This document shows, piece by piece, positions 2,153-50,436 of a stretch of 64,000 nt of DNA (positions are counted from its first letter, which is position 1; every line of letters begins with the position of its first letter). The position numbers and the translations under genes are program-made. Source of the DNA: an uncultured Methanomicrobiaceae archaeon (lineage in GTDB: Archaea; Halobacteriota; Methanomicrobia; Methanomicrobiales; Methanoculleaceae); contig CAWGXH010000003.1 of the NCBI GenBank assembly GCA_963826525.1, positions 480,001-544,000 of the forward strand, read 5' to 3'. The notes under the pieces are model-generated. The model had not been told where the DNA came from. It searched no databases and was given only the letters and a program-made list of their open reading frames with translations.

Positions 2153-4562
2153 TCTCGTACGTCCTGACCTTGACAAAATCCAGGACCAAAAAGCCGATGA
2201 TCGCATAGAGCCAGACGAACCCTGCCAGGTACCAGCCGATCGGCGTGACGAAGATCCCGTATACCACGATGATGGTAGCAATGACCTTGGTAATGATGGC
2301 CGACCAGAGCAGAGCCGATCCCGGCCTGACCGACCAGAAGGGACCCCTCGTTCGGGTGACGAAGATGGTGAGGTGCCCCGCCACCGCCAGTTTCAGGAAG
2401 ATGAGCGACTGAATGACCGGAAGGCTCAGGTGCAGCGGTCCCTGTGCGATGTACAGGAGGGTGAATGAAAAGACGACTCCCACAAAGCCGAGGACCGTCG
2501 AGAGGGTGAGGATCTCCTGCATCTTCCACTTTTCAGGGGATTTTGAGTAGATGACGTTGTCGTAGGCGATGGTCATGATCGGAATATCGTTCAGGAGCGC
2601 CAGCAGCACGATCATGAGAGCGGTGATCGGAAAGAAGTTGAAGAACAGAATGGAGAAGGTGACGAAGAAGAGCACGCGGATGGTCTCGGTAATACGGTAG
2701 ATCACGTAGTGATTCATCCGCTGAAAGATCTTCCGGCTCTCTTTTATCGCATCGATGATAACCGAGAGCCCGGGCTTTGTGAACACGATCGATGCCGCCG
2801 ATTTCGCCGCATCCGTGGCGCCGGCAACTGCGATACCGACGTCCGCCTTTTTGAGGGCGGGCGCATCATTCACGCCGTCGCCGGTCATGCCGACGATGTG
2901 TCCCCGCCCCTCCAGGAGCGAGACGATACGGTACTTATGTTCGGGAAACACTTCGGCAAAACCGTCCGCCTTTTCCACGATCTCTCCCGCCTCGGTGTCG
3001 TGCTCGTTCAGGAAGGCATCGGCAGTGACGATATCGGACTTTAAGTTCACTTCCCGTGCAATCTCCCTGGCGATTGCCACGTGGTCGCCGGTGACCATCT
3101 TGATCTCAAGCCCCATCTCCTGCGCCGTCTTGATGGTTGCCGCCGAATCGGCACGGGGCGGATCATGGAGACCGAGCACCCCGGTATAGACCCAGACATC
3201 GTTGTCGCTGCTCCTCGCCACGCCGAGCATACGGAACCCTTTTTTCGCAAAGTCATTCGAGAGCTCGTCGATGCGCTCTTCGAGGTCCTTGCTCCCGCCT
3301 GTGAGCTGCAGGATCACCTGCGGCGCACCCTTTGCCACGCTGAACCGAGCGCCGTCCGCACCCTCTATGGTGGCCTGTGTGCGCTTAACGACGGGATCGA
3401 AGGGTTTGAAATTCAGAACCTTGTATGCGGCGGCTTTTTCCTGCCGACCTTTAGCCTGTTCCGACGTGATGATCGCCATGTCGATGGGGTCCTGATCCTC
3501 CTCCCTCGATGCGAGTATGGCGTCCAGCAGCACGTCCTCCTTCGTGACCGCTTCGAACGGCACGATATCGGAGAGGGTGAGGCTGTTCTCCGTTATCGTT
3601 CCGGTTTTATCGCAGCAGAGCACGTCGACCCCGGCCATCTCTTCGATGGCAACGAGCTTGCTGACGATGGCTTCTTTCCTGGCGAGCGCCACCGCCCCGA
3701 CTGCCATGGTGATGGACAGGACAGCCGGCATTGCCGCAGGAATCGCCGCCACGATCAGGACGAGTGCGAACTGGAGCGTGTCGAGCAGGTTTTCCTGCCG
3801 GAAGATCGAGACGATGAAGGTGACGGCAACCATGGCGATTGCCATGATGATGAGATAATCCCCTATTTTGACAACGGCTCTCTGGAAGTGGCTGACGGTT
3901 ACCGCCTCTTCGGCGAGCCGGGCGGTTTTGCCGAAGAAGGTATCCACTCCTGTGGATACCACCAGTCCGGTCATTTCACCCTGCTTCACAATGGAGCCGG
4001 CATAGCCGACGTCCGAGATCTGTTTGTCGACCGGCATCGACTCCCCGGTCAGTGCGGATTCGTCTGCCGAGAGGTACTCCCCCTCGATGAGCTTGATGTC
4101 CGCGGGGACGACATCCCCGAGCCGGATACGGACGATGTCGCCGGGCACGAGCTCGCGTGCGGGCAGTTTCTGCCATCTGCCGTCGCGCAGCACCCGTGCC
4201 TCGAGCGCAAGCCGTTCTCTCAGCATCTCGATGGCGTTTCCTGCCTGCCGCTCCTGCCAGAAACCGACAATCGCGTTGATGAGGAGCAGTGAGGAGATGA
4301 TCGCGAAGTCCTCCCAGCGCTGAATGACGGCAGAGATGACCAGGGCCGCTTCGATCATCAACGGGATAGGGCCCCAGAAATACTTCAGGAACTTGAGAAT
4401 CGGGTTCTCTTTCTTCTCCGGAATCTCGTTGTACCCATATGTCTGAACGCGGTTTTGAGCCTCGGACCCGGTCAGCCCTTCCCGTTGCGATGAGAGGGTC
4501 TCGAAGAGATCATCTATGGTTTTGCCTTTGGCCTCCTCCGTAGTGATCAGCTGTCCCGCCAT
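2118..4562 (-). CDS. Plasma-membrane proton-efflux P-type ATPase (P3A)
   Basis: DKTGT phosphorylation motif, TGES, KGAP, TGDGVNDAPALK, FKPFDPV and ALLND (TM6 Asp typical of H+-ATPases). Start taken at ATG 4562. Confidence 0.93.
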   Translation of the reverse strand: MAGQLITTEEAKGKTIDDLFETLSSQREGLTGSEAQNRVQTYGYNEIPEKKENPILKFLKYFWGPIPLMIEAALVISAVIQRWEDFAIISSLLLINAIVGFWQERQAGNAIEMLRERLALEARVLRDGRWQKLPARELVPGDIVRIRLGDVVPADIKLIEGEYLSADESALTGESMPVDKQISDVGYAGSIVKQGEMTGLVVSTGVDTFFGKTARLAEEAVTVSHFQRAVVKIGDYLIIMAIAMVAVTFIVSIFRQENLLDTLQFALVLIVAAIPAAMPAVLSITMAVGAVALARKEAIVSKLVAIEEMAGVDVLCCDKTGTITENSLTLSDIVPFEAVTKEDVLLDAILASREEDQDPIDMAIITSEQAKGRQEKAAAYKVLNFKPFDPVVKRTQATIEGADGARFSVAKGAPQVILQLTGGSKDLEERIDELSNDFAKKGFRMLGVARSSDNDVWVYTGVLGLHDPPRADSAATIKTAQEMGLEIKMVTGDHVAIAREIAREVNLKSDIVTADAFLNEHDTEAGEIVEKADGFAEVFPEHKYRIVSLLEGRGHIVGMTGDGVNDAPALKKADVGIAVAGATDAAKSAASIVFTKPGLSVIIDAIKESRKIFQRMNHYVIYRITETIRVLFFVTFSILFFNFFPITALMIVLLALLNDIPIMTIAYDNVIYSKSPEKWKMQEILTLSTVLGFVGVVFSFTLLYIAQGPLHLSLPVIQSLIFLKLAVAGHLTIFVTRTRGPFWSVRPGSALLWSAIITKVIATIIVVYGIFVTPIGWYLAGFVWLYAIIGFLVLDFVKVRTYEIIDHSGVRFSR

Positions 4563-7146: not shown

Positions 7147-7213
7147 GAAAGCACCAGCGGGTTAGGGTCACCTTACTTATTTAAACATTTGTGTCCGTAT
7201 AGCGCAATCACCC

Positions 7214-7240
7214 ATTGTAACTGCACCGTGCAATTACAAT
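7214..7240. promoter_or_regulatory. 27-bp near-perfect palindrome upstream of the DUF4331 promoter
   Basis: ATTGTAACTGCAC-C-GTGCAATTACAAT (12 of 13 pairs). A TATA-like TTTAAATA lies on the - strand at 7178-7185. Confidence 0.5.
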
Positions 7241-7459
7241 TGAATCAATCAAACGAAAGGTCACATCTAGTCCAAATGCAATTTGTTAAAACGAAAGATG
7301 TCTGTGCTATCTAAACCAGAACAGCGCGTAATAGGCTTCGGACATCCACACCGATTCCGAAATGATGGCTGATTAGCCAGTCGGGGGTCTCCGTGGATCT
7401 CTTCGTAGACCCTCATCAGCGTGCCTTCGGGGATCACCTCGATCAGATATTGGATCGCC

Positions 7460-7546
7460 CTTTCCGCTCTTCGCATTCTGCTTCATGTAGTGCAGCGTCC
7501 CCTTCGAGAACCCCATCTTCTTCATTCCGTATACGACATAGTCGAG
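7460..7546 (-). pseudogene. cas1: Remnant of casposon-type Cas1 (casposase) C-terminal HTH, copy 1
   Basis: Restoring one G reads MSYTE[W]KKMGFSKGTLHYMKQNAKSGK. This matches the C-terminal tail of Methanosarcinales casposases as recalled (SYVDWKKLGFSKGTLHYMKQNAKSDKPF). Confidence 0.7.
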
Positions 7547-7588
7547 AGGGGAAGGCTTTTTTTCCGCCAACCATCACAAGGACACACC

Positions 7589-8028
7589 ATGCACCAGGTA
7601 ATCTATGACTCACGAGGCGGCAACACCAAAAAGGTGGCGGATGCGATCGCCGAGGAGTGGGTGTTGCGGCGGAGGATGTCAGGACCGCTTCCCTCGGACC
7701 GGCCGACGGCATCCTGTTCCTCGGCTCGGGCTGCTACGGTGGCAGGCCCGGAGAATATATGGCGGAGTTTATCGAGAAGAACGATTTCAAGGGCAGGCGG
7801 GTCGCCCTGTTCGGTACCACCGAGGGAGGCACGGGCATTGAAGTGAAAACTATGGAGGAGGCCTTGGAAGAGGAGGGTGCCGAGGTGCTGGGGAGTTATT
7901 TCTGCAAGATTCAGGCAATCGGGCTCTTCAGCCGTGACCACCCGGATTCCGACGAGATCGACGCCGCCAGGACGTTCGCCAGGGAAACGGCCGGTCTCCC
8001 ATCACTTCGCCACCCTGTATCGCGATGA
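7589..8028 (+). CDS. Flavodoxin family protein, copy 1 (frameshift near 7657)
   Basis: MHQVIYDSRGGNTKKVADAIAEE joins GVAAEDV...FLGSGCYGG...VALFGT. FMN-binding S-x-x-GNT loop. Confidence 0.85.
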
Positions 8029-10623: not shown

Positions 10624-10800
10624 ACCTGACGTGAAACGTTCAAATAGCAATAGGAATATCAAATCTCACCAGGGTGTATCCTCAGTCGAGCAGAGGTTGA
10701 AAATGATGATGCAGAGAGCATGGTTTTCCAGGAGGGGCAGATCGATCATGAATATGAATACAGGCTCAATGAAGCGTTCCTGGGCAAGAGCTGAGCATGT

Positions 10801-11685
10801 ATGACGCAATTTGATCCTTTCTTTATTGCCATAGGCACGCTGGGCGTGTTGATATTTGTCATTACCAGCATGCTTGGCATGGGGTTTAGCCTGACCATTC
10901 CCCAGATCGTGACCCCGCTGAAGAACAGAAAGCTGATCATCATGTCCCTTGTAGCAAACTTCGTTCTCGTGCCTATCCTGGCATTAGTGATCGTGGGTTT
11001 CATCCCGATCTCTGAGGGACTGAAGATCGGCCTGATTCTGGGGGGTTTCGCTGCAGGGGCGCCGTTCCTGCCCAAGCTGGTACAGGTGGCCAAAGGCGAC
11101 ATGGCGTTCACCGCCGGGCTGATGGTCCTCTTGATGGTGGTAACTATCGCCTATCTGCCCATAGTTCTGCCATTTGTATTGACTGGCGTGCAGGTTAATC
11201 CCTGGGAGATCGCCAGGAGCCTTATCGTATTGATGCTCATTCCGCTCGCGATTGCCCTTTTCATTCGAGCCAGGTATGAAGAAGCGGCCAAGGGCCTCAT
11301 CCATCTGATGACCATGGCTGCCAACCTGTCTCTGGCGGCAATGTTCATCGGATATTTTGTGGGTTATGCCGATGTAACCTATGGAGTTCTTGGAACCGGC
11401 GGAATTCTGGTGGCCATCCTCCTGGTTGTTGGCGCCGTTATCATAGGCTATCTCCTGGGCGGGACAGATAAGGGCGATAAAAAGGTTCTTGCACTCGGAA
11501 CGGGTCAACGAAATTTAGCCGCCGCGTTTGCCGTTGCCTCCAGCAATTTTGCCACCAATCCAGAAGTCTTGATAGAGGTTATGGACGTGGCAGTGATAGG
11601 ATTTATTATCTTGTTGTTCGTTGCCGGGGAACTTGGCAGGCGCAGTGCACCAGGAGCTGAGAAGAGCGTGAAGGCAGCGACATGA
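10801..11685 (+). CDS. Bile acid:sodium symporter (BASS/SBF) family transporter
   Basis: SML.MG..LT, ANFVLVP, AGAPFLPKL.Q.AKGD and GTGQRNLAAA motifs; about 9 TM. Confidence 0.85.
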   Translation: MTQFDPFFIAIGTLGVLIFVITSMLGMGFSLTIPQIVTPLKNRKLIIMSLVANFVLVPILALVIVGFIPISEGLKIGLILGGFAAGAPFLPKLVQVAKGDMAFTAGLMVLLMVVTIAYLPIVLPFVLTGVQVNPWEIARSLIVLMLIPLAIALFIRARYEEAAKGLIHLMTMAANLSLAAMFIGYFVGYADVTYGVLGTGGILVAILLVVGAVIIGYLLGGTDKGDKKVLALGTGQRNLAAAFAVASSNFATNPEVLIEVMDVAVIGFIILLFVAGELGRRSAPGAEKSVKAAT

Positions 11686-12049
11686 AGGGTATCTGCCCTC
11701 GTTTCGATGGTTATCCGGTCGTTCGAAAGAGACATGGCGGGTTCATTGAGAAGCTATGCGGGTTATATCTCCAAAAACACCCCCACCTATGGTCGTTGTC
11801 ATGGTCACGGCGGTTCGAATTTGCCCCTCGCACCGCTTTTCAGATAGCTATCTCAGAAAATGGCCCCCTATGCCGCTTGTGATGCCACTTCGCCGCCGTT
11901 ATCGTGATGGAACCAAAAAAGAGCCCGAACGCCCGGGTCAACCGTCTCCAGGCCTCGGAAATAAAATTTAAAATCATTCTCTGCACCCCTGAAGAGAATC
12001 CTCACACGCGGTCTATCCCGGATCGTGATGGTGGTCTTCTACGGATCTG

Positions 12050-13655: not shown

Positions 13656-13753
13656 CGACCCCAGAGGGTCCGGATAGAGCGACGCCAGGAGATCAAGCGC
13701 AGCTGTGCCGAGACGACCACAAACTAAATGCAATCCTAAAATTAAGATGACAT

Positions 13754-14506
13754 ATGGAAACCAATCCAATTTTTAAGATTTTTGAATCGTTTCCCAGGCA
13801 GGGGGCGGGGGATGATGAGCACACGGGAAAGGCATTTTCACTCATCGCAGAACCACCAAAAGGAGGTGGTGAGATCCTTGATGTTGGTTGCGGGAAGGGT
13901 GTACAGACGATGGCCCTTGCCCGCCTGTGCCCGTCCTGCAGGATAATAGCGACAGATATACACCAGCCTTTCCTCGATGCGGTGGATGAAAAAATTGCAG
14001 CCGAAGGTTTTTCCGGGAGAATCAAAACGGTCTGTGCATCTATGGACGATCTTCCCTTTGGAGAGGAGTCTTTCGACATTATATGGGCTGAAGGATGTTC
14101 ATCCATCATAGGCATCGAAAATGCCGTCAGGTACTGGAAAAAACTCCTGAAACAGGGGGGATACATGATGATCTCGGATATATTCTGGTTTACGGAGACC
14201 CCCTCTGATGAGGCACGGGAATTCTTCGCCGAATTCCATCCCGCAATGATGATCGAAGATAAAGGATTTGAGATCATCCGGAATGCCGGGCTTGAGCTGG
14301 TTGGATCCTTCAGGCTTCCTTCACGAGTATGGGAAGAAAGTTTCTACGGTAGATTGAGGGAGAAGTTTGGAGAACTCGAAGAGGAATATGCAGATGATGA
14401 GGGCGCTCTGATGGTCATTGAGGGGTTGAAAAGGCAGACCAAAATCTTTGAGAAATACTCGGATGAGTTTGGGAATACATATTATGTAATGAGAAAACCA
14501 TTGTGA
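13754..14506 (+). CDS. Class I SAM-dependent methyltransferase
   Basis: PRQGAG, ILDVGCGKG and SMDDLPFGEESFDIIWAEG motifs. Confidence 0.9.
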   Translation: METNPIFKIFESFPRQGAGDDEHTGKAFSLIAEPPKGGGEILDVGCGKGVQTMALARLCPSCRIIATDIHQPFLDAVDEKIAAEGFSGRIKTVCASMDDLPFGEESFDIIWAEGCSSIIGIENAVRYWKKLLKQGGYMMISDIFWFTETPSDEAREFFAEFHPAMMIEDKGFEIIRNAGLELVGSFRLPSRVWEESFYGRLREKFGELEEEYADDEGALMVIEGLKRQTKIFEKYSDEFGNTYYVMRKPL

Positions 14507-14639
14507 AGAATAGTAGATGAAAGCACTTCTCATTTTTCACGTTTAATAAACATAGAATACGTCAATATTTTCAATTCTTCTAAATCCGGCCTTTATTCAA
14601 TGATTTTCCAGGCCATTACGATATGATTCTTGGGCTCCG

Positions 14640-15620: not shown

Positions 15621-15864
15621 GTTCGTATTGGGTAATAGGTATCTCGAAAAATGCCTCCCTTATGGCGGCTGTGATATCACCTATTCCTGATATCCCTGCG
15701 TCATCTGCACGCTCGTACTATTCAGGTTACCGCAGTGCGGGGACGTGATGCCTACGGACCAATTACCCATCCCGTTGCCCAAAAGCTATTTCAATCCGGG
15801 AGGGAACAACGGGGGTCGATTCCTCGATACAAAAATTGTGGGAAGGGATGAAAGAGGGGTGTAA

Positions 15865-16476
15865 ATGGAGAAACCATTGTATCGAATCGGTTTCTGGTCG
15901 GCGTCTGTAGCATCTGTTGCAGTATTAGGATTCGATATCGCTCAAATTCTGCAGATTATAGGCACGCTTGGGCATCCATGGGATGAGATTCTGATCTACG
16001 GATTTTCCCTTTTTATTGCAACGCCATTTATGCTCTCTTTGCTTGCACTGCACTACATCACACCGGAAGTGAAGAGATTTTGGAGCCATGCGGCGGTTCT
16101 CTTTGCCCTGGCGTATGCCATATATGTCAGTTTTAATTACGTTGTTCAACTGACGGCTGTCATTCCGTATGCCGCCCCCGAACCGGTTCTTGTACAGACA
16201 CCGCACTCCCTCTTCTGGACTGCCGATGCATTGGGATACATCGCATTGGGTTTTGCTACGTTATTTGCGGTCCCGATATTCGCGAAACAGGGGCTACAGA
16301 AGTGGGTCCGGTGGTTTTTCCTGGCCAATGCCCTGATCACGCCGTTGATTGCCTTCGTCTATTTTTATCCGAATTTTTCCACGGCATTGCTGCTGCTGGG
16401 TTCGCCGTGGATCGTGACCACGACAGGCTCGATAGTAGTATTAGCGCTCTTTTTTCGGAGCGGAGCGGAACTATGA
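15865..16476 (+). CDS. Hypothetical integral membrane protein (about 6 TM)
   Basis: GAGGGG RBS; intact hydrophobic ORF with NYVVQL and DALGY motifs. Confidence 0.75.
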   Translation: MEKPLYRIGFWSASVASVAVLGFDIAQILQIIGTLGHPWDEILIYGFSLFIATPFMLSLLALHYITPEVKRFWSHAAVLFALAYAIYVSFNYVVQLTAVIPYAAPEPVLVQTPHSLFWTADALGYIALGFATLFAVPIFAKQGLQKWVRWFFLANALITPLIAFVYFYPNFSTALLLLGSPWIVTTTGSIVVLALFFRSGAEL

Positions 16477-16656
16477 AGCAAGAATATAGATTTCAAAAAT
16501 GTCCCTGAAAGCGTGTTATGACGGTTCGTGACCGGACACTATGCGGACGATTGGGATCTGGAACCAACGGCATGACGAGCCGGATGTCCAGAAAACCATG
16601 GTCGGAAATTCTCATCTCCGAGCAGAAGCGAAGGTAAGATTGTATGGCCATTGAAT

Positions 16657-16770
16657 CTAATAGACGCAAGGAATGAGCTTCTTGATCTTGCGAGCATACT
16701 CTTCGCATTCTTGCCCGAACTTGGCGGACAGAACCTTCTCTTCAACTCTGATCCTGTGAAGCGGCCCGTA
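16657..16770 (-). pseudogene. 3' fragment of an isoprenylcysteine carboxyl methyltransferase-family gene
   Basis: HRIRVEEKVLSAKFGQECEEYARKIKKLIPCVY* matches the R..EE..L..FG.EY..Y....LIP tail of the family. Confidence 0.7.
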
Positions 16771-16786
16771 TGCAGCAGACGTGTGT

Positions 16787-17898
16787 TCACCAGTACATCT
16801 TCAATAACGGGATTTTGCGGAAGACAAAGTGTGTCGCTGCAAAGCATAACGGAACGCAGATGACGCAGAGCATGAGCCATGTAGCAACCGGGTACAACAC
16901 GACCGGGCTGAGCAGTAGAGCGACTGCGACGATGATCGGAGGATGGAACATATAGACTGCAAACGAATTGTCCGACAGTTTTTTGACCAACGTACCCTGG
17001 CGGTTGAATTTCTCCCTGAAGACGGCGATCAGTCCGATGCTCATGGCAACCGCTACAAAAGATTCCCATACCGAAAATCCTGCGCTCTGCCAGGTCAGCC
17101 CTCCCTGCAGGGCGGCCACATCTCCACTTACCGTGGCTGCTATCACCAGCGCCAGCCATGCGAGGAAGCCCAGAGCGATACCGCTGATAAGCCACCTTTT
17201 TCCGGTTCGATAGCTGATCCCGGCGAACAGGTTGTTTCTGTACGCCAGGATACCCACGACGAAAAGGGCGATGTACAAAGCGAAGTAGCAGAGCTGCATG
17301 TTCAGGACGCTTGTCCCGATCGGCTGGACGATCCGGATCAGAAAGGCGGAGACGGCGATGATCAGGATAAGGATGACTGCCCTGGCAAACGAGGGCTCAA
17401 GCTGCTTTTGGTCAGGTGCAGGAGCGGACCTGCGGGGAATCAGACGCACCAGCCCGTACATCAGCGAAAAGCCAAAGAGCGCCACCGCGAACCACATCAC
17501 CCCGGTGCTCGAGAGAAAGCCGATAATGTCAAAGCCGGTCCACGGATTGCCGAGTTCTACGTATTCGATGAACGGCGTTATTGCTACCATATAGATCAGC
17601 GTAGGGATGATCAGGCGCCGGAACCTCTCTTTGCCGAACCGGCCGAAGCCTTTCCGGTCGTACTCCCTGCGGCAAAATAGCCGGCGATCAGAAACAAGAG
17701 CCCCAGGAAGTATGCCTGTTGAAACGATAGGTAGAATGCAAACCAAATGGTGGATAGCGTGTCCAGTTGCGTGTTTGCAATATGGTACCAACTGCCAAAG
17801 CCGCTGTATGTCACTGCCAGGTGATGCATGACGACAAACGCGATTACCGTCAGTCTCAGATTGTCGATGTAATGGAGCCTTTCCTTGACGTTCCCCAC
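16787..17898 (-). CDS. Acyltransferase family 3 (OpgC/MdoC-like), frameshift near 17670
   Basis: RLHYIDNLR...HHLAVTY, FLIAGYF, RFRRLIIP, GVMWF and SFAVYMFHPP motifs. Confidence 0.85.
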
Positions 17899-17932
17899 TT
17901 CATTTCGGATTGAGACGGCTGTCAATCGAGAC

Positions 17933-18129
17933 TCACTTCCACTTCGTGAGTATCTCTTCTCGTCGGAACATAAATGTACTCAAGAAGAATAGAGCCGCAC
18001 CGGCGATCACGAGAATGAGCGAAATGATCGGAAGGGTATTGATGTCGAATATTATAACTCCTGTCGCTCCTGCAACGAAGACGGCCCTAAACGGGATAAA
18101 CACGAGCTCTCCCTCACGTGCCTGTTCAT
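17933..18129 (-). CDS. Small 2-TM membrane protein (frameshifted)
   Basis: ATG 18129 joins VFVAGATGVIIFDINTLPIISLILVIAGAALFFLSTFMFRREEILTKWK*; AT-rich promoter upstream. Confidence 0.45.
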
Positions 18130-18409
18130 AGTGAACGGTTTATTTATTCACCTAATTATATTACTGTAATTAAATAATATTGCATCCGATACGAGAATTA
18201 TAGTTATCAGGCGTGCAGGGTGTTTACCGGAATAATTGCAGTTCCTGCAGGGAATCTCCGGGGCTGTCACGCTGTTTCCGGGATCTACTGCCTCCCGGGA
18301 GAGATCTGTGATGCACTTCTCCGGCACTCATGTACCGGCGGATGACCGTTCGTTCCTGTTTGCGAGCAGTTTGCAGTGCAGGAGGTGGAGATGCGCGGTC
18401 CATTCAATC

Positions 18410-18490
18410 CCTTCAGCATTCTTCTTCAGATAACGGAGCGTCCCATTCGAGAACCCCGTTTTTTCATTCCGTGTACGACATATTCAGGAG
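18410..18490 (-). pseudogene. cas1: Remnant of casposase C-terminal HTH, copy 2
   Basis: LLNMSYTE*KK.GFSNGTLRYLKKNAEG after indel correction. Homologous to 7460-7546. Confidence 0.6.
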
Positions 18491-18530
18491 GAAAGGATTT
18501 TCTTTACCGGCAAACATTACGGAATACATC

Positions 18531-18944
18531 ATGCACCAGGTAATCTACTACTCGAGGGGTGGCAACACCAAAAAGGTGGCGGACGCGATCGCGGGGGAAC
18601 TGAGCGTAACAGCGGTAGACGTTCAGGCCGCTTCTCTTGAGGCGGGCGACGGCGTCGTGTTCCTCGGCTCCGGCTGCTACGGCGGCAGGCCCGGGGAACA
18701 CATGCTGAAATTTATCGAGGCGGGCGACTTCCGGGCTAGAAGGGTCGCCCTGTTCGGGACGTCCGGGGGAGGCGCGGGCAACGAAGTAAAGGGCATGGAG
18801 GCGGCCGTGAAAGAGAAGGGTGCCGAGGTGCTGGGGAGCTACTTCTGCAAAGGTCAAACCGCCCTGCTCGTCAACCGCGGCCACCCGGATTCCGCCGACC
18901 TCGAGGCTGCCAGGACGTTCGCCAGGGAGATGGCCGGCCTGTAG
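18531..18944 (+). CDS. Flavodoxin family protein, copy 2 (intact)
   Basis: MHQVIYYSRGGNTKKVADAIAGEL...FLGSGCYGG...VALFGTSGGG. Confidence 0.9.
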   Translation: MHQVIYYSRGGNTKKVADAIAGELSVTAVDVQAASLEAGDGVVFLGSGCYGGRPGEHMLKFIEAGDFRARRVALFGTSGGGAGNEVKGMEAAVKEKGAEVLGSYFCKGQTALLVNRGHPDSADLEAARTFAREMAGL

Positions 18945-32544: not shown

Positions 32545-32705
32545 CTGGAGCGGGGGTAGCGAGCAACCGAAAGAGGCGATGGAGAGCCTCCCGGTGGATA
32601 GGGCACCAGGTATCCTTCCCGAAGGTACAACTCGAGAGATTGCGCACGGAATCGTGACGGGTTTGCGTGTATCGGCGAAGGAGCCGGGCTGGTCTTCCCC
32701 GTAGC

Positions 32706-35700
32706 TCACGCTTTTCGAAGCGTGAACCGGAACGCCGCGCCTTCCTCGGGGTGGCCGGCCGCCCGGTCGTCGATCCGGACTCTCCCGCCGTAGCGCTCGA
32801 CGAGCGTCCGGACGATGAAGAGCCCGAGTCCCTGACCGCTCCCCCTGGCCATGCCCCGTTCGAACCGGGTGAAGAGTTTTCCTTTCACCTCGTCCGGCAC
32901 GCCCGGGCCCGTGTCCTCGACCGAGACCAGCACCTCGCCGTTCCGCTCCTCGGCCCGGATGGCGATCTCGACATCCGCTCCACCGAACTTGACGGCGTTG
33001 CCGATGAGGTTCGTGAAGACGGTCGGGAGGAGGCCGTCCGCCAGCACCTCGACCGGCGAGCCGTCGTACCGGATCGATGCACCGGGGAATCGTGCGATCT
33101 CATCCCTGATGACCGCATCGAGGTTCACCGGCACCAGGTTGCCGGATTCCTCGGAAGCCCGCCGGATGGTGGCGACGTTCCGGAGTATCTCGCTGCTCCG
33201 GTCGATGCTGTCGTGCAGTTTCTCGGCATAGGTCTTCAGGTCTCCTTCCGCAAGGTCTGCGAGGAGGTCGGCGTACATGCTCGAGACGTTGTTCGCGTTC
33301 CGGACATCGTGGGTCATGATATCGAGGTACATGTTCGCCTCGTCGCGTGCCGCTTCCACCTCCCCGCTCTTCCGGACAAGATCCTCGGTGCGGCGCCGGA
33401 GCGCTTCTTCCGCCCGTTTGCGCTCGGTGATATCCATCACCATGCCGACGATAAAGCGGCGGCCGTCGGTAAGCGTGCCCGGCGAGGACGCGAAGAAACT
33501 CCAGTGCCGGGTCAGGCCGTCGCGGGTGTGGATAGGGAATTCGATCCCGATCGTGTGCCGGTCGCCCCTGAACAGTGCCTGTACGTGATCGCGCACGGCA
33601 TCCGCGCCCTCGCCGTAGGCACGGGTGAGCCAGGCGTCGAACGTTGGCACGTCCTCGAGCGTATACCCGGTCAACTCGGTCCAGGTGCGGCTGATCTGGA
33701 GCACTTCGCCGTCCTCGGCGTGCATGATGATCGGGATCGGTGCATCCTCGATGGCCAGCCGGAACCGCTCCTCGCTCTCCTTCAGGGCTTCCTCTGCCCG
33801 TTTGCGGTCGGTGATGTCGCGTGCGTTCACCAGGAAACCCCGGACGGCCGGCTCTTCCAGGAGATTGGCGCCGATTATATCCAGATACAGCCACTCTCCA
33901 GAGATGTGCCGAATCCTGACTTCGAGGGTGATCCGCTCTCTCGGATGGGCGGCAGCAGTACGGAGGGCGTCCACCACAAGCTGCAGATCGTCCGGGTGCG
34001 TCAGTTCGAGGACGCTTCTCCCGATGAGGTCTTCGGGTGCATACCCGCCGATCGGTTTCACCGACGGGCTCGCATACTGGATGCGGCCGCCCGGATCGAG
34101 GACGACGACGATGTCCGAGGCATTCTCGGTGAGCAGCCGGAACCGTTCCTCGCTCTGACGCAGGGCTTCTTCGGCCTGCTTCCGCTCGGTGATGTCCCGA
34201 ACGATCATCGTCGTCCTGACAACACCCTCCCTGTCCGTGAAGAGCGCGGACGATACCTCGCCGGGGAAGGTGGTCCCGTCTTTTCGCCGGAGCCTGAGTT
34301 CTCCTTTGAACCTCCCGGTCCTGGCCCTCTCCTCGAGAGCGGGCTTGAGGCGCGGATCCGAGAGATCCGCGACACCGTTCCTGCCTGCGCGGATCAGCTC
34401 CTCCTCGGTCATTCCGAAGATCCGGCGGGCCTCGGCATTGGCAGCGTAGATCGAGCCGTCGGGATCCGTGAGAAGAACCGCGTCGATGCTGTTCTCGACG
34501 AGGTTCCGGTACCGATCCTCGCTCTCCCGCAATGCCTCTTCGGCCCGTTTCCGGTCGGTGATATCGGTGAAGCTCTCGAGAGCCTGCGTCGACTTGGCCG
34601 GATGCATCCTTAATCGGCTGGGCAATAATGCGTGTACCAGCGCCCACGTTCCGGGTTGTACTTCTCAACTTTCGCAACTTCGCCCGTTGCAAAGACGCGC
34701 TGTGCCGCACACACTTCGCACGGCTCGCTCCTGCCTCCGTAGAATCGATAGCATCTCCGGCCGACGGGCTCCTGTTCGGGAAACAGGTCGCGGGTCTTCT
34801 GGTTTACCCAGACGATTGTCATATCCGGGTCGATGAGTGACTGTGCCGTATCAAGCGCGGACAGGATGGAACCTGCCCGTTCCTTCTCCCGGCACAGGGC
34901 CTCCTCCACTCGCTTGCGTTCTTCGATCTCGATCCGGAGCCGGTTATTGGCACGCTCGAGTTCGGCAGTCCGTTCCCTGACCCGGTCGTCGAGCTCGGCA
35001 TAGGCCATCTGTAACGCTTCTTCGGCTTGCTTTCGCTCGGTGATGTCAATCGCAACACCAATCTTTTGCTTGAGCGAACCGTCTGCGTTTCTCAGAAATG
35101 GACGTTCGTACGTATGCAGGATGCGCCATGAGCCGTCTTGATCTCTTGTGCGATGTTCATTTTCCAGAATCTCATTGTCTGCGGCAGATAGAACCTTTGA
35201 CTGGAAGGCGATCACTCTTTGCAGATCGTCGGGATGGATCATGTTGGCAAACAGTTCCGCACCCATGGCTCGAACGTGCCCGGTCGAATACCCCAGAATT
35301 CGCTGGATGCCATTGTTGGAGTACACGTTGCTCTGCGTCTCCAGATCATAGATATAGATAATAGCAGGAGAGGTATTCACGACCGATGAGAGAAAATGTT
35401 CCTGTTCCAGCAATGCCTCCTCCAGCCTCTTGCGCTCTTCAACTTCGGCTTTAAGTTTGGTATTGGACAGTTGAGCTCCGCCGTTCTCTCCCGGACACGG
35501 CACTCCAGTTCATCCCGTGCCTCCCGCAGTGCCTTCTCCGCCTGCTTTCGCTCGGTGATGTCCAGCACCCCCGCGATAGCGCCGGAATACTTCCCCTTAC
35601 TGCTGTAGAGTGGAGAGGTGACCAGCAGGGTATCGATACGGCTCCCGTCCTTGCGGATGAACGTATATTCCATCTGCTCGCTCACCCCCGCCCTTCGGCG

Positions 35701-36357
35701 CTCCTTCTCTTCATCCAGACGGCCCCTGTCCTCTTCGGGAAGGAACTGCGCAAAGGGTTTTCCCACCACCTCTTTGACGGTGTAGCCGAGCATCTCCGCC
35801 ATCCGCTCGTTGACGAAGGTGATACGTGCACCGGTATCGATCGCCCCGATGCCCTCGCTCAGGCTCTCCGGAAGTGCCTGGAGTTCTTCGGTCAGGGCAT
35901 GCAGCTCCTCGTTTGCAGTCGCAGGATCTTCGGCCTGCTGCTCGCCATGCCGAACCGCCGGTATCCGAGCCTCAGCCGGATGGAGGCTGATGAGCTGCAC
36001 GCCCCGGAGCGGTTCGTCCTGCATGACGCTGCTTGAGACGAGAACCGGGTGCTCCTGACCGTCGGAGGAACGGATGGTGCAGGTGAGATCGGTGACCTCG
36101 TGCCGCCCGGAGAGCAATGCCGTTATCTTCGCCGCGCACGTTTCGTCTGCGATCTGCGGTGTCAGGTGCAGGCGCACGAACCGGTCTGCGTCGCTGCCGT
36201 GGAGGGCGTCCCGATCGATGCCGAGGAGGCGCTCGAGCGGGCGGTTGATCCAGGCCACACGGGTGTCGCGATCGATCAGGAGCGCCCCCTCGGTGAGCGT
36301 ATCAAGTATGACTGCTGCCGACTGCAATTCGGCTGAGAAATAGCGGGGTGAACTCAT
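32706..36357 (-). CDS. Multi-PAS (about 7) histidine kinase, about 1200 aa (frameshifts near 35470, 34630, 34590)
   Basis: Three consecutive ORFs join in mid-domain. Repeated DITERK motifs; H-box MTHDVRN, NLIGNAVK, DTGPG and GLGL. Confidence 0.85.
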
Positions 36358-36676
36358 TGCGTAAGTACTCCTGCAGGCTCGATTTCAAGTTTTTATAAAT
36401 GATAGTGCATAAAGCCTTTCAACGACGAATAAACGAAATGAAGAAATGCCTCCAGTCTCTCCGGAATTGCAATCGTTCAGACCGGCACGAACGGATCATC
36501 TGTTCATGGAGGCAAAAAGGGTTTGCATCGATACCGTCCTCCTCGCTTGCGGCGGTCCGGCTGCATGAGCGAACGGGATGCTGCGTTATCCTCTCGATCC
36601 CGCCTCCGCCCTCCTCCCGGGAAGACGGGTAACGGCAGCAGGCGGCCATCCGAACGGAAAAAGGGTGCATCCGCCC

Positions 36677-38342
36677 TCACGCCATCTCGTTGCGCTGCAG
36701 AAACGCCCGTATCGCCCGGGACTCCACCCATCCCCGGTCGAGCTGCCCGACGATATCGTTGATCCGCTGCACCTGCTCCCGGATACTCACGGCGGCCGTT
36801 GCGTCCTCGAGCAGATCCGCCCGGGCCAGGATAACCTGCAGGGGGTGGCGGATATGGTCGCCGAGGATAGCGAACTGCTCCATGTTCTGTTCGATCTGGG
36901 CATACGCCTGCCGCCGGATCGCTTCGTGATGTTTCCGGTCGGTGATGTCGTACATGATGCCGTGGCTTGCTACGGCGCGGCCGGCAGCATCGTAGGCGAA
37001 CCTGCGGGCAGCATGGATCCAGCGCTCCTTGCCGCCGGGCAGGCAGACGCGGTAGTCCATCACGAAATCCTTCCGGTCACGGATACTCCGCTCGAGCTCC
37101 GCGATGACGTGCTCGCGGTCATCGGGGTGCAGTCGGTCGACAAGGGCGGCGATGCCCGGTTCGACGCTCCCGGGTGCATACCCGAGCAGCTCGCACTGCC
37201 GGGGATTCCACTCTGTTCTGCCGCTCTCGAGATCCCAGAACGATATCCCGGCCGAGATGGCATCCAGTGCCAGTCCCAGCCTGTCGCGGCTCGTGCGCAG
37301 TTCGTCTTCGATCCGTTTCCGCCCGGTGATATCCTGCACCACCGAGAGAAGGTACCGCTCTCCGCCTACCGTCACCACGTCCTGGTTGCTCGAGATGATA
37401 CGCATCTCGCCGGATTTCGTGAACAGCGATTTCTCCAGATCGCGCACCGAACCTTTCCGCAGAAGCTCGGCCATGAGGCGTGAGCGTCCCTCGGGGTCGG
37501 GGTCGATGCCCAGCTCGAAACGGTTTTTGCCGAGCGCCTCCTGCCTGGTGTAGCCGAATGTCTTCACCCACTGCTCGTTAACATTCACGTACGCACCGCC
37601 GTCCCGCCGGGCCAGCGAGATCGGGAAGGGCGCCCGCTCGAAGATGAGGAAGAATCTCCGCTCGCTCTCCTGCAGGGCACGCTTCGAGATGAGGCGGTGC
37701 ATGGCGATGGCGATGTAGTCGGCGACGGCCTTCATCACCGCGAGGTCTCTCTCCGGGAAACGGGTGCGTGAACGGGTTCCGAAGGAGAGCGTACCGAGGA
37801 CGGCACCTTCTACGATGAGCGGATGGCATGCATACGCCTGCACGCCATAGGATCTGACCAGCTCCGTTCGGGGGTCGGGTGTGGTGGGGATCTCTTCCGC
37901 CACAATCCGGCAGGCATCCCGGGCTGCACACCCGCAGACGGCGGTGCCGTAGTCCAGCCACTCGATCTTCCGCGCCTCCTCCTCCGGAATACCGCCCACT
38001 GGCATTCAGGTGCATGCAGCCTTTCTCCGGGTCAGCGAGGTAGTTGAAGAAGACGTCGCACTCCAGAAACGCCATGGTCTTCCGGCAGAGATCATTGGCG
38101 ATCGCCTGGGGATTCTCGGCCGTAAGGAGCCGGCTTGCCACATCCGCCAGGAGCTCCTCGCGGCGTTTACTCCAGAGAAGGCTTTCCTCCGCCTGCCTGA
38201 GTTCTGCGTTCTCCCGGCGAAGAGCCTCGATCTCTGCCTGCAGCCGGGTGACGAGTCCGGCATCCGGGCAGTCCCCTGCCGGCTCTCCTTCCTCCTGTTC
38301 GCGAACCGTGTTCTTTCCTGGGGAGTGAGGTGGTGCGGTCAT
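36677..38342 (-). CDS. GAF-PAS-PAS sensor ending in a HisKA/DHp-like helix pair, without ATPase domain (frameshift near 38000)
   Basis: GAF (YACHPL..LGTLSFG), two PAS domains and C-terminal LGDHIRHPLQVI...LDRGWVES..IRAFL. Confidence 0.8.
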
Positions 38343-38532
38343 ATGCGTATCCGTATGCTGTCCGGGTAAAATGGAGGAGAAAGCTCTACTCGCATTTACA
38401 TAGCAGTAACGATCCGTCTCCCACGATAGCGATCGTTACCGGGGGGCAGGGAAGTCGTCGGCCTGCGTGTTCGCCGAAAATGTTCAGTTAAAAACTGCTC
38501 CGGGATCCCCGGCGGCCGGGTCTCTCCGTAGC

Positions 38533-40284
38533 TCACGCTTTTCGAAGCGTGAACCGGAACGCCGCCCCTTTCTCAGGGTGGCCCGGCACCCGGTCGTCGA
38601 CCCGGATATGGCCGCCGTAGCGCTCGACGAGGATCTGCACGAGGTAGAGCCCGAGCCCTTCGCCGACGCCCCGCTTCTGCTGCTCGTACCGGTGGAAGAT
38701 CGCATCCTTCTCATCGTCCGGAACGCCCGGGCCGGTGTCCTCGACCGTTACCCGGATGAACTCGTCCATGTCTTCCACCCGGACGGTGATCTCGACATCG
38801 AGACCGCCGTGCTTCACGGCGTTGCCGATGAGATTGTTGAAGATCACGGAGAGCAGATCGTTTGCCAGGACCTGCGAGTGGCCCCCTTCGTAGCGGAGGG
38901 TGCTGCCCGGGAAGTTCTCGATCACCTCACGGGCGACCGCGTCGAGATCCACCGGTCTGAGCTCGGACGATGCCCGGTGAATCTGGCGGATGGTTGAGAC
39001 GGTCTTTAAGATCTCGATGCTCTTCTGGACGCTCTGCTGCAGTCTCTTCGCGTAGTCGGCCGCCTCTCCCTCCAGGGAGTCGATTAAGAGGTCGGCGTAG
39101 AGGTTCGAGACGTTCTCGGTGTTGCCGATGTCGTGGGTGAGGATGTCCAGGTACAGATTCGCCTCCCGGTGAGCGGACTCGAGATCCCGGCTCTGCCGGA
39201 CGAGGTCGTCGGTGCGGCGCCGGAGCCCCTCTTCCGCCTGCTTCCGCTCGGTAACATCCATCAGGTTCTGCACGACCGCCGGTTTGCCGTGGTAGACCGT
39301 CGGGCACCCATATGCCTCGATGGCGATAATCCGGCGGTCTTTTCTCACTCCCCGGAACTCGTAGTGTGCATAGGGCTGTGCAGAGGCGGCCATCCGGCCG
39401 ATCGTCTCCTCCACGCCGGCCCGGTCTTCGGGAGCCACCAGATCCCAAAACTCCTTCCCTGCACGGAGTTCGTCATGGGTGTAGCCGAACATCTCGGAGA
39501 ACCGTGCATTGGCGTAGCGGATCACGCCGTCCTGAACCAGGTGAATCCCCACGAGCGACCGCTCGACGGGATTTCGGAACATCTCCTCGGATTCACGCAG
39601 CGCCTGCTCGATCTGCCTCCTCATGGCGATCTCATCGCGGTACGCAGCGGTACGCTCCTCGACCAGCACCTCGAGGGTATCGTTCAACACCCGCAGTTCC
39701 TCCGATGCCTGCTCTGCCTCGGCGTGCTTCTGGATAGCAGCCTGGTATGCGGAGAGGAAGAATTTGATCAGCTTCTGCTGCGAACCGCAGACCTGATACT
39801 GTTCATCATCGCACCGGATCTCGATCGGCGGACAGAACTCCTCGTCGTGTGCCCTGCTTACCCGGCTTGACAGGAACCCTTCGATCTGCGAGAGGAGAAA
39901 CTGCTGATCGGAGGATTTGATGATGAAGTTGTCAGCCCCGCACTCCAGCGCCTGAAGCACGTCGCGGGGATGGGAGAGATTTGTGACCAGGATCAGGGGA
40001 ATGTCCTTGAGACCAGGAGCGGTCTTCATCCTGCGGCAGAGCTCGAAACCGTCCATCTCCGGCATGAGGATATCGCTGATCACGATATCGGGCCTCTCTT
40101 TCTCTATCGCTGCAAGAGCGGCGTTCCCGTTCTCTGCAACCGTGACGGCATATCCGTTCTGCTCGAAGACGTGCCTTAAGTATGCCGCCTGGGTGGAACT
40201 ATCCTCAGCGAGCAGTATCCTCCGCTGCCCCCACCGGGCACCTGACCCGCGCGTCTCACCGGAAATCTTGCTCACGTGTTTCAC
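38533..40284 (-). CDS. REC-PAS histidine kinase (output of the chemosensory operon)
   Basis: LLAEDS..SDILMPEMDG..K receiver domain, PAS, THDIGN H-box and HATPase motifs. Confidence 0.9.
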   Translation of the reverse strand: MKHVSKISGETRGSGARWGQRRILLAEDSSTQAAYLRHVFEQNGYAVTVAENGNAALAAIEKERPDIVISDILMPEMDGFELCRRMKTAPGLKDIPLILVTNLSHPRDVLQALECGADNFIIKSSDQQFLLSQIEGFLSSRVSRAHDEEFCPPIEIRCDDEQYQVCGSQQKLIKFFLSAYQAAIQKHAEAEQASEELRVLNDTLEVLVEERTAAYRDEIAMRRQIEQALRESEEMFRNPVERSLVGIHLVQDGVIRYANARFSEMFGYTHDELRAGKEFWDLVAPEDRAGVEETIGRMAASAQPYAHYEFRGVRKDRRIIAIEAYGCPTVYHGKPAVVQNLMDVTERKQAEEGLRRRTDDLVRQSRDLESAHREANLYLDILTHDIGNTENVSNLYADLLIDSLEGEAADYAKRLQQSVQKSIEILKTVSTIRQIHRASSELRPVDLDAVAREVIENFPGSTLRYEGGHSQVLANDLLSVIFNNLIGNAVKHGGLDVEITVRVEDMDEFIRVTVEDTGPGVPDDEKDAIFHRYEQQKRGVGEGLGLYLVQILVERYGGHIRVDDRVPGHPEKGAAFRFTLRKA

Positions 40285-47902: not shown

Positions 47903-48658
47903 ATGCTGTAACATCGATATTCTTACGGTCTTCTCTTCGGGCTGTCCCGGGAGGAGGTATCTCCCCCGAAGCCCGTAACCACCGATTGCATAAATGCCGA
48001 TAGAGAGGTGGGATTCTGACCACATAAGTTTTGAGCATCACGGGGGTGGGTGCGGACCGCTCTGTTTTGCCGCTCTCGTATGCCCCCGGCACTGCAAAAG
48101 AGAGCGATGACCGTCTTCCTCTCTCCGAGTCCGGGTTACACCGAGACACCCCCATCGATAATCTCCGCCTCCCCTCGGGACACCTGTCATGCTCCGGCGG
48201 AGCGTTCGGAGCGATCCCGGCCGCCCTCTCCTCGTGCACCAATGTCACTCCGACGACACCTTTGCCCTCGTGGGGGAGGGGCATCCGCCGGAGAACGTCT
48301 ACATTCCAGAGGGGCGCCGTTGGGCAGATCCGACCTGTTTCCACGGCTGAAGCACGTGGGAGTCCGACATTACCGGCATCCGTAACCGCTCTTTCCGGTG
48401 TACGGAACTTCGAAATGAATTAATATGATCTCCCGCTGTAACCACGCTGCATCGGAATCGCGCATCGCGACTCCTGCAGACGATCGAGCATGAGCCCTTT
48501 CTGCAGGGCTCGTGGACGCTCCGGCGGCGACGGTTCCCGGGGATTTCGCTATGGGGTTCCGACACCAGCGAGAATGGTTTCGCCGTTCGTGCCACGGCAT
48601 TCGGACGTTGCCTCCCGCTCTTCCCCGGTCGCTGTCTGCTCCGGAGTGGTGGACTGTC

Positions 48659-50436
48659 ATGGGCTCGTATCGAACGTCACTGATCGTCGGCTCGGTCCTC
48701 CTGATCGTGATATGCCTGCTCGGTGCTCCCTCCGCAGCGCGGACCGGGTGAAAGCTTCAGCCGGCGATACCATATACGTCGGCGAAGAGAGCCTGAACCT
48801 GACGGGGCTCGACCCGGCGGTCGTCCGCCTTGTCCACTACAGCGACGGTGCGGCGGGGCCGGCCGAGAACAGCATCGCTGTGCCGAACCCGGACGACTTC
48901 GATCTCCGTGCGGCGGATGCCGGCACCGCCACCGGCACCTACTACGCGTGGGACGCGACCGGTCCGGTCGCCGGCAATCCGTTCGTCGTTGTCGACGTTC
49001 CGTCCGTGACCCTCGATGCCGTCCTGAACGGGACAAACCGCTCCGTGAACGGCAGAACCGTCACCCGTGACCGCCTTCTCGCATTCAGACTCGAAAATAA
49101 CCTGGAAGGGCCGTATGCCGTGCCGCCGCTCGTCTCTCTGGCCATCGAGACCACCCTGCCGAACGGCACGAAGGTGCTCGCCTTCGGCGGCGTCGATCTC
49201 TCTTCGGTTGCCGTCTCTACGCCCACCCTCTCGATACCCGGTATCGCCCTCGCCGGCGCCGAACCGGGCACCTACACGGTTCAGGCGAAGTGGACGGACA
49301 GAGCCGGCCTCGAGGGCAAGGGGTATGACTCGAACACCGTCGTATTCGAGATTCTCGACCCTGCTTCGGCCAACGTCACGATGAACGTGCCGGGTTCCGG
49401 CACCTATACCCTCGGTGACAAGATCGGGCTCAACGGGACCTGTGACGGCAGCACTACCGTGTACCTCTTTCTGACCGGCCAGAACCTCGGGAATGGCGAG
49501 AGGCTTGATATGGGCGGTCCGGTGATGAACGGCAATGCAACGACCTTCACTGCGGTTGCCGTCGAAGCCAACGGTACCTGGCAGTACCGGTGGGATACCT
49601 CCGCGCTCCATGCGGTGATCGATTCCGGCATCTATACGATCTCTGCAGCACCGGTACCCAGGGACTATGCGAGCCTTGCAAATCACACAGAGGCGGGTAT
49701 CGTCTTTGCGATGCCGACACTGACCGCGGAAGCGCACCCTGCGTCGGTCGTCCCGGGCGATCCGGTCGTCATCTCCGGCAACGCCACGGGAGATCCGGGG
49801 AACGTCTATGTCTGGATCTTCGGGCAGAACCTCCGCGTCCTCAGCGAACCCGCGGGTGTTGCGTCGAACGGCACCTTTGTCTACACGCTCGATCCTGTCG
49901 ATACCGCCTATCTGGCTCCCGGTCAGTACGACGTCGTCATCCAGCACCCGATGATGGACGGAGAGCAGAGTGTCGGTTTCGTGCCGCCGGGCTCCATCCG
50001 CGTGCCCGGCACGGCGCCGGTCAATCTTGATGGCCTGACATCGTCCGCCGCCAGGGCTGCATTCATGGATGCTTTCACCGCACCCGGAGTCGACGACGTC
50101 TACGTGGAGGTCACGTTCCGGATCGGCAAACCCTGGATTGCGATAAACCCGATCGGCGACCGGATCGTCGACACCCCGTTCCGGATCGACGGCACGACCA
50201 ATCTGGCCGTCGATGAGAGGCTGAGGGTGACGGTCACGAACGTATCCGGCCTCACTGCGGTGTCGCGAGACGTGCGGGTCGGGGAAGGAATACCGAATAA
50301 TACGTGGTCGTTCGAGGTCGGTGCTTCGACGCTGGAGGCCGGCGAGTATACCGTGACGGTGCGATCGGCATCGACCGAAGCTTCCCGGAGGGCCGCCTTT
50401 CGGGTTGTCGAGAGTACCGTCCCGACTCCGCCATGA
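48659..50436 (+). CDS. DUF3821-domain S-layer-like cell-surface glycoprotein (frameshift near 48748)
   Basis: Signal peptide MGSYRTSLIVGSVLLIVICLL joins GDTIYVGEESLNLT. VYVWIFGQN, YDVVIQHPM and I.GTTNLAVD motifs; many N-x-S/T sites. Confidence 0.8.

Follow-up and report, generated by a model that had tools for sequence, protein, structure and literature searches.

A short casposase pseudogene fragment, most likely a co-duplicated scar, upstream of two flavodoxin genes in an uncultured archaeon

Two flavodoxin genes of an uncultured Methanomicrobiaceae archaeon are each preceded by a short piece of DNA (~80 nt) that, read on the opposite strand, resembles the C-terminal end of a casposase, the Cas1 integrase of casposons. 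The locus raises the question of how casposase-coding DNA came to stand in front of a flavodoxin gene twice, and whether it has been kept there because it serves the gene or has been copied along with it as a passenger. A sequence-only reading of the window (the whole stretch of DNA that was analysed, 64,000 nucleotides) had proposed that the surrounding island passed through or derives from a casposon, and that the fragment may have been kept as an upstream regulatory element. We followed these proposals in the window, in the remainder of the genome (G000) and in the genomes of relatives; the features on which the argument turns are collected in Table 1.

Table 1. Positions of the casposase remnants, the adjoining flavodoxin genes and the reference casposon (window coordinates unless a locus is named).
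Feature	Location	Strand	Description	Evidence
Fragment A	7461-7543	-	decayed casposase 3' coding DNA, ~aa 359-388 of 415-aa relative	nhmmer, tblastn, PDB search
Fragment B	18413-18489	-	decayed copy of the same casposase fragment, end at ...KKNAEG	nhmmer, PDB search
Casposase tail continuation, copy B	18106-18142	-	NKPFTMNRHVRE, aa 387-398 of relative	tblastn, 10/12 identical; nhmmer E 1.4e-5
Insertion (264 nt) splitting the copy B casposase remnant	18145-18408	.	95% identical to G000:C3:605862-606125 (L075 1501-1764), sharp ends	
Block of 2,019 bp	16484-18502	.	not in L055; holds acyltransferase gene, 56-aa membrane ORF, casposase tail, 264-nt copy and fragment B (right end)	
Flavodoxin A	7589-8028	+	frameshifted by 1-nt deletion at 7657/7658 vs B and G001	
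Flavodoxin B	18531-18944	+	intact, 137 aa	Flavodoxin_3 E 2.7e-13
Spacer, fragment A to flavodoxin A start	7544-7588	+	proximal 28-36 nt common to L055, which lacks the fragment	
Complete casposon in G009	L156 5320-14666 (G009:C14)		~9.35 kb; PolB, Cas1-HTH, C5 cytosine methylase, Vsr, beside tRNA-Leu(taa)	

Kinship of the fragments with casposases

A DNA profile built from the casposase 3' ends of six relatives was run with nhmmer against the 64-kb window and recovered fragment A (7543-7461, E 1.8e-19) together with fragment B (18489-18413, E 6.3e-13), the latter being the diverged copy that had earlier been placed at 18410-18490. The sole other significant match (18142-18106) belongs to the continuation of copy B, and the profile found no further casposase-like DNA in the window. 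When the legible 22-aa piece of A was compared with 177,635 PDB sequences a single match was returned, 6opm_A (19/21 identical, residues 379-399, E 1.6e-7), which was also the single match for the 20-aa piece of B (E 0.1). This entry is the casposase-DNA complex of Methanosarcina mazei (Hickman et al. 2020, PMC6977970), and the alignments hold 16 consecutive residues that are identical between the peptide of the fragment and the M. mazei protein. Among 61 related genomes the 22-aa piece had matches in 12 at E <= 1 (the own genome and its sister species G001 included), with a best per-genome E of 8.5e-9 among the casposase tails of relatives. The relative G009 encodes a casposase of 415 aa from a GTG start (L018:400-1644; PF01867, aa 21-300, E 1.5e-67) whose alignment with 6OPM (E 1.3e-174) extends as far as the C-terminus (...ISYVDWKKLGFSKGTLHYMKQNAKSDKPFTLNAHVLERV...); the 22-aa reading is 76% identical to aa 368-388 of this protein by tblastn (the match lies at residue 372 of the 417-codon open frame), and tblastn and nhmmer place the fragment at about aa 359-390.

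The proposal that the peptide is the C-terminal HTH of a family-2 casposon Cas1 was thus confirmed. We read both fragments as homologous to the C-terminal extension (HTH) of a Cas1-family casposase, and their source gene as a close relative of the M. mazei family-2 casposase. As set out in the structural account (PMC6977970), the C-terminus of family-2 casposases is extended by 60-70 residues with a predicted HTH (residues 342-406), an essential domain whose deletion (residues 342-406) abolishes integration. Fragment A, with MSYTE(W), covers ~27 residues and the tail of copy B a further 12, all of them within this ~65-residue domain. Unlike the M. mazei enzyme, the fragments are without the Cas1 catalytic domain and without a start, are frameshifted and lie antisense to the flavodoxin gene, so that no casposase can be made from them. 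Chance resemblance, or membership of some other HTH family, might be entertained for a piece of only ~27 aa for which Pfam gave nothing (A) or a spurious sub-threshold Big_12 match (B), but with the profile E-value, the lone match in the whole PDB, the 16-residue identity and a tail in copy B that goes on in register, its probability is next to nil and it may be taken as refuted for practical purposes.

Decay is evident in the reading frames, which are interrupted by frameshifts and stops in both copies. On the minus strand, 7546-7532 gives MSYTE and then TGA in one frame; past the TGA, KKMGFSKGTLHYMKQNAKSGK is legible in the frame gained by adding one base inside TG(G), and 7525-7460 translates as MKKMGFSKGTLHYMKQNAKSGK. 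Fragment B reads NMSYTE, TGA and then (N)EKTGFSNGTLRYLKKNAEG at 18468-18409. The loss of one nucleotide in the Trp codon (TGG to TGA) is common to both in the alignment, and since the sister species has an intact TGG at the same place, it is A and B that lost one G. The restoration of one G that had been proposed for copy A is therefore justified. Both copies are indeed broken at the Trp codon, as had been stated, but B carries a second 1-nt deletion two codons past it and needs two frame corrections, not one. Fragment A has no start codon and is cut off after ...NAKSGK. Accordingly, neither fragment offers an ORF with a start and a stop (TGA for TGG in both; the second frameshift and the 264-nt insertion in B; the cut after SGK in A), and no Cas1-domain DNA (PF01867) was found adjoining either of them, the flavodoxin gene sitting where the Cas1 domain would be. 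We regard the fragment as non-coding and as doing nothing as a gene.

Copy B keeps more of the casposase than fragment B alone would indicate. The NKPFTMNRHVRE codons, at 18144-18109, resume in register at the codon where fragment B stops (...NAEG, ending at 18409), and they occupy profile positions 303-339, after positions 218-296 for fragment B; past HVRE, the remnant runs into the 56-aa membrane ORF and the acyltransferase gene. The 264-nt sequence that splits this remnant exists in two copies in the own genome, in one copy in G001 and as a fragment in G002. At its other site it is native DNA that directly precedes a 207-aa PAS-domain gene, and that site is single-copy in G001. This low copy number and the native upstream site of the PAS-domain gene mark it as a templated insertion and rule out a MITE. 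The stretch contains an AGGTGA Shine-Dalgarno-like motif and, as placed in the window, faces the acyltransferase gene and the 56-aa ORF, for which it could be a promoter that was captured.

The flavodoxin junction, its distance and its distribution

The likeness between the two loci spans from ~7472/18412 to ~20 nt beyond the flavodoxin stop, that is, a unit of ~530 bp with 79% identity, outside which nothing aligns on either side. Searches by DNA and by the 22-aa piece found these two copies only in the own genome, with no further or intact ones. To the left of A, the flank 7147-7465 has no second copy in the genome, and Pfam assigns no family to the 69-aa ORF in it. The two flavodoxin genes are in unequal condition: in A the Pfam match is confined to aa 4-23 of the first frame, the frame past the deletion continues to 8028, and tblastn splits the gene into 7589-7657 and 7663-7998, which suggests that flavodoxin A is probably a pseudogene or, alternatively, carries an assembly error.

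The constant spacing that first drew attention to the pair was measured in both copies, with CGACATA at 7534-7540 and 18476-18482, ATG at 7589 and 18531, and an offset of 49 in each. The exactness of this figure is partly coincidence, since the spacer alignment of A and B contains two compensating 1-nt indels and the offset in G001 is 48. The 'fixed distance' to the flavodoxin start goes back to a single ancestral junction, which was duplicated as part of the unit. In A, the joint between casposase and flavodoxin DNA lies at ~7537-7560 (the nhmmer envelope reaches 7564). On the flavodoxin side, the homology of the related contig L055 to copy B begins 28 nt before the ATG, and because the proximal 28-36 nt of the spacer are common with this contig, in which the fragment is missing, they represent the native flavodoxin leader. 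Whether casposase homology runs on into the spacer (read as 'KILAI' in G001) was considered as well; this likeness is inseparable from chance, as it falls in the low-confidence edge of the nhmmer match and a similar string occurs in L055.

The sister species G001 carries the same junction, with the fragment on the opposite strand 48 nt before the ATG (nhmmer E 5.8e-11). There a single frame can be read through the fragment (..KILAILNMSDMEWKKMGFSKG.., also given as ..KILAILNMSDMEWKKMGFSKGMHNSMKQ..) with TGG intact, and the fragment has suffered compensated 3-nt indels; the flavodoxin protein is 82% identical to B. As A, B and the G001 copy share one joint, the junction arose once, before the copies diverged, which bears out the earlier view that the fragment was joined to the flavodoxin promoter region ahead of that divergence. 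The coding sequences of the three units are 77-84% identical, to be set against 96.3% between the mcr loci of G000 and G001 and 94-96% between the genes beside the G001 unit and their counterparts in the window (where the order is different). Considering this disparity, the units are old paralogues or exchanged cassettes and not orthologues. A flavodoxin tree gave a poorly resolved star and was set aside as a basis for polarising events.

Beyond the sister species the junction was sought at other flavodoxin loci: the fragment was not found upstream of the homologues in G043, G060, L055, L056, L057 and L076 (in G043, 76% identical at the amino acid level, and in L076 another gene ends 20-25 nt upstream of flavodoxin), and neither nhmmer nor tblastn matched casposase sequence at any of 80 metagenome flavodoxin loci. 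Conversely, where other relatives have casposase tails no flavodoxin adjoins them, save for a weak match in L013 (28% identity, E 8e-4). As far as these searches went, the junction is confined to this genus, with two copies in G000 and the one in G001.

The related contig L055 offers a view of the locus without the fragment. Its positions 2105-2971 match window 15630-16483 (89% identical) and 2972-3402 match window 18503-18932 (blastn), so that window DNA up to 16483 is joined directly to window DNA from 18503 onwards; flavodoxin stands there 36 nt after a 203-aa membrane-protein gene, with no fragment between the two. The 2,019-bp block of the window is hence read as an indel relative to L055, either an insertion in the window or a deletion in the contig. 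GCAAGA/GAAAGGA-like strings are seen at both of its borders and might be a short direct repeat. Within the block, the acyltransferase region (16785-17949) is 86% identical to G021 and G024, which belong to another genus, and was not found in the two genomes of the same genus; in the window it is divided between two ORFs that overlap (16787-17791 and 17611-17925), perhaps through a frameshift. The idea that the acyltransferase gene and the 56-aa ORF are casposon cargo has no support, for they were not found in the casposase loci of relatives, and no casposase DNA accompanies the acyltransferase homologues of G021 and G024.

Casposons in relatives and their traces in this genome

A complete casposon, of the kind that had been proposed as a thing to look for in relatives, is present in G009. 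Its terminal inverted repeats (TIRs) are 128 nt long, 93% complementary and 9.1 kb apart, a flanking direct repeat of ~18 nt (by eye) marks the target duplication, PolB has 882 aa (PF03175, E 3.7e-9) and the tRNA-Leu gene lies beside the right end. The tail of its casposase resembles fragment A to the degree given above, making it the kind of element from which the fragment came. Of this casposon, with its PolB, methylase, Vsr, TIRs and tRNA-Leu, the own genome matches only Cas1 DNA at the DNA level; as protein queries, PolB and three of its neighbours (methylase and Vsr not among them) gave nothing. When the casposase, PolB, the three neighbours, the TIRs and the whole element were searched against the own genome, the only matches besides the two fragments came from decayed casposase DNA on contig C14 and, at 32% identity, from a distant Cas1-like sequence on contig C4; PolB, TIR and intact casposase were not found by tblastn or blastn with the G009 casposon, a single query with which a very different type of casposon would be missed. 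The C14 pieces (354-625, L054) form a second, heavily decayed casposase fragment, which is broken into three stretches, with a gap inside, and corresponds to aa 139-303 of the G009 protein. This contig of G000 is 8.1 kb long and the neighbours of the fragment are ordinary (DUF998, a hydrolase and a GPR1/FUN34/YaaH protein).

Scans of the window found no CRISPR-like closely spaced direct repeats, no tRNA and no Rfam family at gathering threshold, and only five tandem repeats, all short. With these scans and the search based on G009, the earlier statement that the window has no other casposon gene (PolB, TIRs) and no CRISPR array proved correct. The notion that the island derives from a casposon is overstated, as only ~120 nt of casposase DNA are present, and the search of the whole genome with the G009 element gave no PolB, TIR or intact casposase. 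We also considered whether the fragment is a casposon terminus or a copy of a long TIR, and this is ruled out, because the 3' end of the casposase gene is internal in the G009 element (~2.9 kb from the nearer TIR) and the G009 TIR finds nothing in the own genome. The fragments show none of the company that defines casposon membership (PolB, TIRs and a target-site duplication around the casposase); apart from descent, they have no property by which a casposase gene or a casposon would be recognised.

The 22-aa piece led to 12 casposase loci in relatives, one of them cut by a contig end, and among the 11 others a single one holds a full-length casposase (tblastn); this set, having been found through a 3' piece, says nothing on which part of the casposase survives best. 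Decayed casposase genes are common in the order. Casposon remnants have already been described, the solo-TIRs of M. mazei strains being one instance (Krupovic et al. 2016, PMC4779613). Like them, the fragment is a small casposon leftover in a genome without a complete element; unlike them, being TIRs at an integration site, it is an internal coding fragment, with no TIR, target duplication or tRNA nearby. It is a fresh example of an already known kind of thing, the casposon remnant. New here are the further casposase codons of copy B, the frameshift of flavodoxin A and the related contig with a flavodoxin gene that lacks the fragment.

Passenger or retained element

We reason that the fragment is most likely a real casposase pseudogene piece and a neutral scar that was duplicated together with its neighbour, and assign this reading a probability of about 0.78. 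In an ancestor of the genus, a rearrangement would have joined a truncated casposase gene (from ~codon 355 onward) head-to-head with a flavodoxin gene that kept 28-50 nt of its leader. The resulting unit of fragment plus flavodoxin (~530 bp) would then have been copied, giving the old paralogues A and B and the one in G001. Afterwards, the fragment would have decayed at about the neutral rate, with the Trp-codon loss common to A and B, the second frameshift and the 264-nt templated insertion in B, the compensated 3-nt indels in G001 and the truncation after SGK in A.

The comparison of the three copies shows no excess conservation of the fragment. Its identity is 61/77 between A and B (third codon positions of the adjacent flavodoxin 95/137, Fisher p 0.15), 54/77 between A and G001 (92/137, p 0.76) and 54/78 between B and G001 (96/137, p 1.0). 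The range is thus 0.69-0.79 for the fragment against 0.67-0.70 at third positions (p >= 0.15 throughout), the A-B value of 0.79 being nominally above its 0.69 and not significant; we stress that a test on three copies has low power for a short constrained motif and that third positions are themselves only an approximate neutral standard. The slower divergence of a cis-regulatory element was therefore not seen (in three copies, at that low power), nor was the fragment found upstream of flavodoxin homologues in other lineages. Indels lie inside it in every copy. The suggestion that it was kept as an upstream regulatory element is left unsupported by these results (no excess over third positions, and absence from flavodoxin homologues elsewhere).

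The foremost alternative holds that the casposase stretch now acts as exapted regulatory DNA (promoter, BRE, upstream activator site or 5' leader) of flavodoxin genes severed from their former operon, and has been retained for that reason. It draws on the arrangement in L055, where flavodoxin is probably co-transcribed with the 203-aa gene: the copies that bear the fragment are without such a partner and need a new promoter, which must be in the junction, the fragment or the copy-specific flanks. Furthermore, fragment and junction are the only upstream DNA common to A, B and G001, and a T-rich box with a purine-rich stretch can be made out at the joint (by eye, in the alignment). As the units share upstream nothing beyond the fragment and ~45 nt, of which 28-36 nt are native leader, the promoter, if the genes are expressed, may sit in the casposase DNA or at its edge. 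Yet the conservation figures and the indels in every copy speak against retention, the T-rich box is partly common with L055 and so native rather than casposase-derived, the frameshift in flavodoxin A means that at least one of the 'regulated' genes is probably dead, and the fragment is missing from the 80 metagenome loci as well as from G043, G060, L055, L056 and L057. On balance we consider this exaptation improbable.

A bolder version, to which we give slightly less credence still, would have the antisense casposase-coding DNA become the promoter or control region of flavodoxin after loss of the operon partner, and the 530-bp unit spread as a self-sufficient expression cassette in the hypervariable island of the genus. 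If true, this would be an archaeal case in which DNA that coded for a transposase was domesticated to act as a promoter. The likeness to mobile-element fragments recruited for host functions (PMC8987985) exists only if the fragment is a promoter or regulatory element; no sign of purifying selection or function was found in it.

Much less probable is that fragment and flavodoxin make up a discrete cassette with defined ends that moved repeatedly and site-specifically, the fragment being part of its recognition end. Such a cassette would account for three paralogous units in three contexts with right boundaries within a few nt of each other (~20 nt past the stop codon), for a left homology that ends inside the casposase tail, and for surroundings that are highly rearranged between G000 and G001. 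The left ends, however, are unlike: A stops after SGK, B goes on beyond the insertion and G001 appears, by eye, to run through the decayed tail. Terminal repeats or target duplications were not seen at the unit ends (judged by eye only), the own genome has just two copies, and Pfam revealed no recombinase gene nearby among the 20 ORFs scanned (6.1-22 kb).

Read as a neutral, co-duplicated scar, the fragment is an otherwise ordinary pseudogene remnant that would matter more only if it carried the promoter of the flavodoxin cassettes. It nonetheless shows that casposons once visited a lineage in whose genome, as assembled (87.6% complete), neither a complete casposon nor an intact casposase is left, and that casposase genes decay to small fragments ignored by gene callers. 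Such fragments are of use in tracing how a variable island was duplicated and rearranged, as here, where three old flavodoxin paralogues share one junction.

The region itself appears to be a strongly rearranged variable island. Blocks with SBF-transporter and methyltransferase genes (window 10625-11890 and 13685-14594) are 94-96% identical to G001 (L053), where they stand in another order near the single flavodoxin unit of that genome, and the rest of the 20 kb beyond these blocks does not align to G001. Further along, several stretches in window 32700-39260 and ~48300-49000 each have counterparts (65-85% identity) at dozens of sites in the genomes G001 and G002, as members of a large multi-copy gene family.
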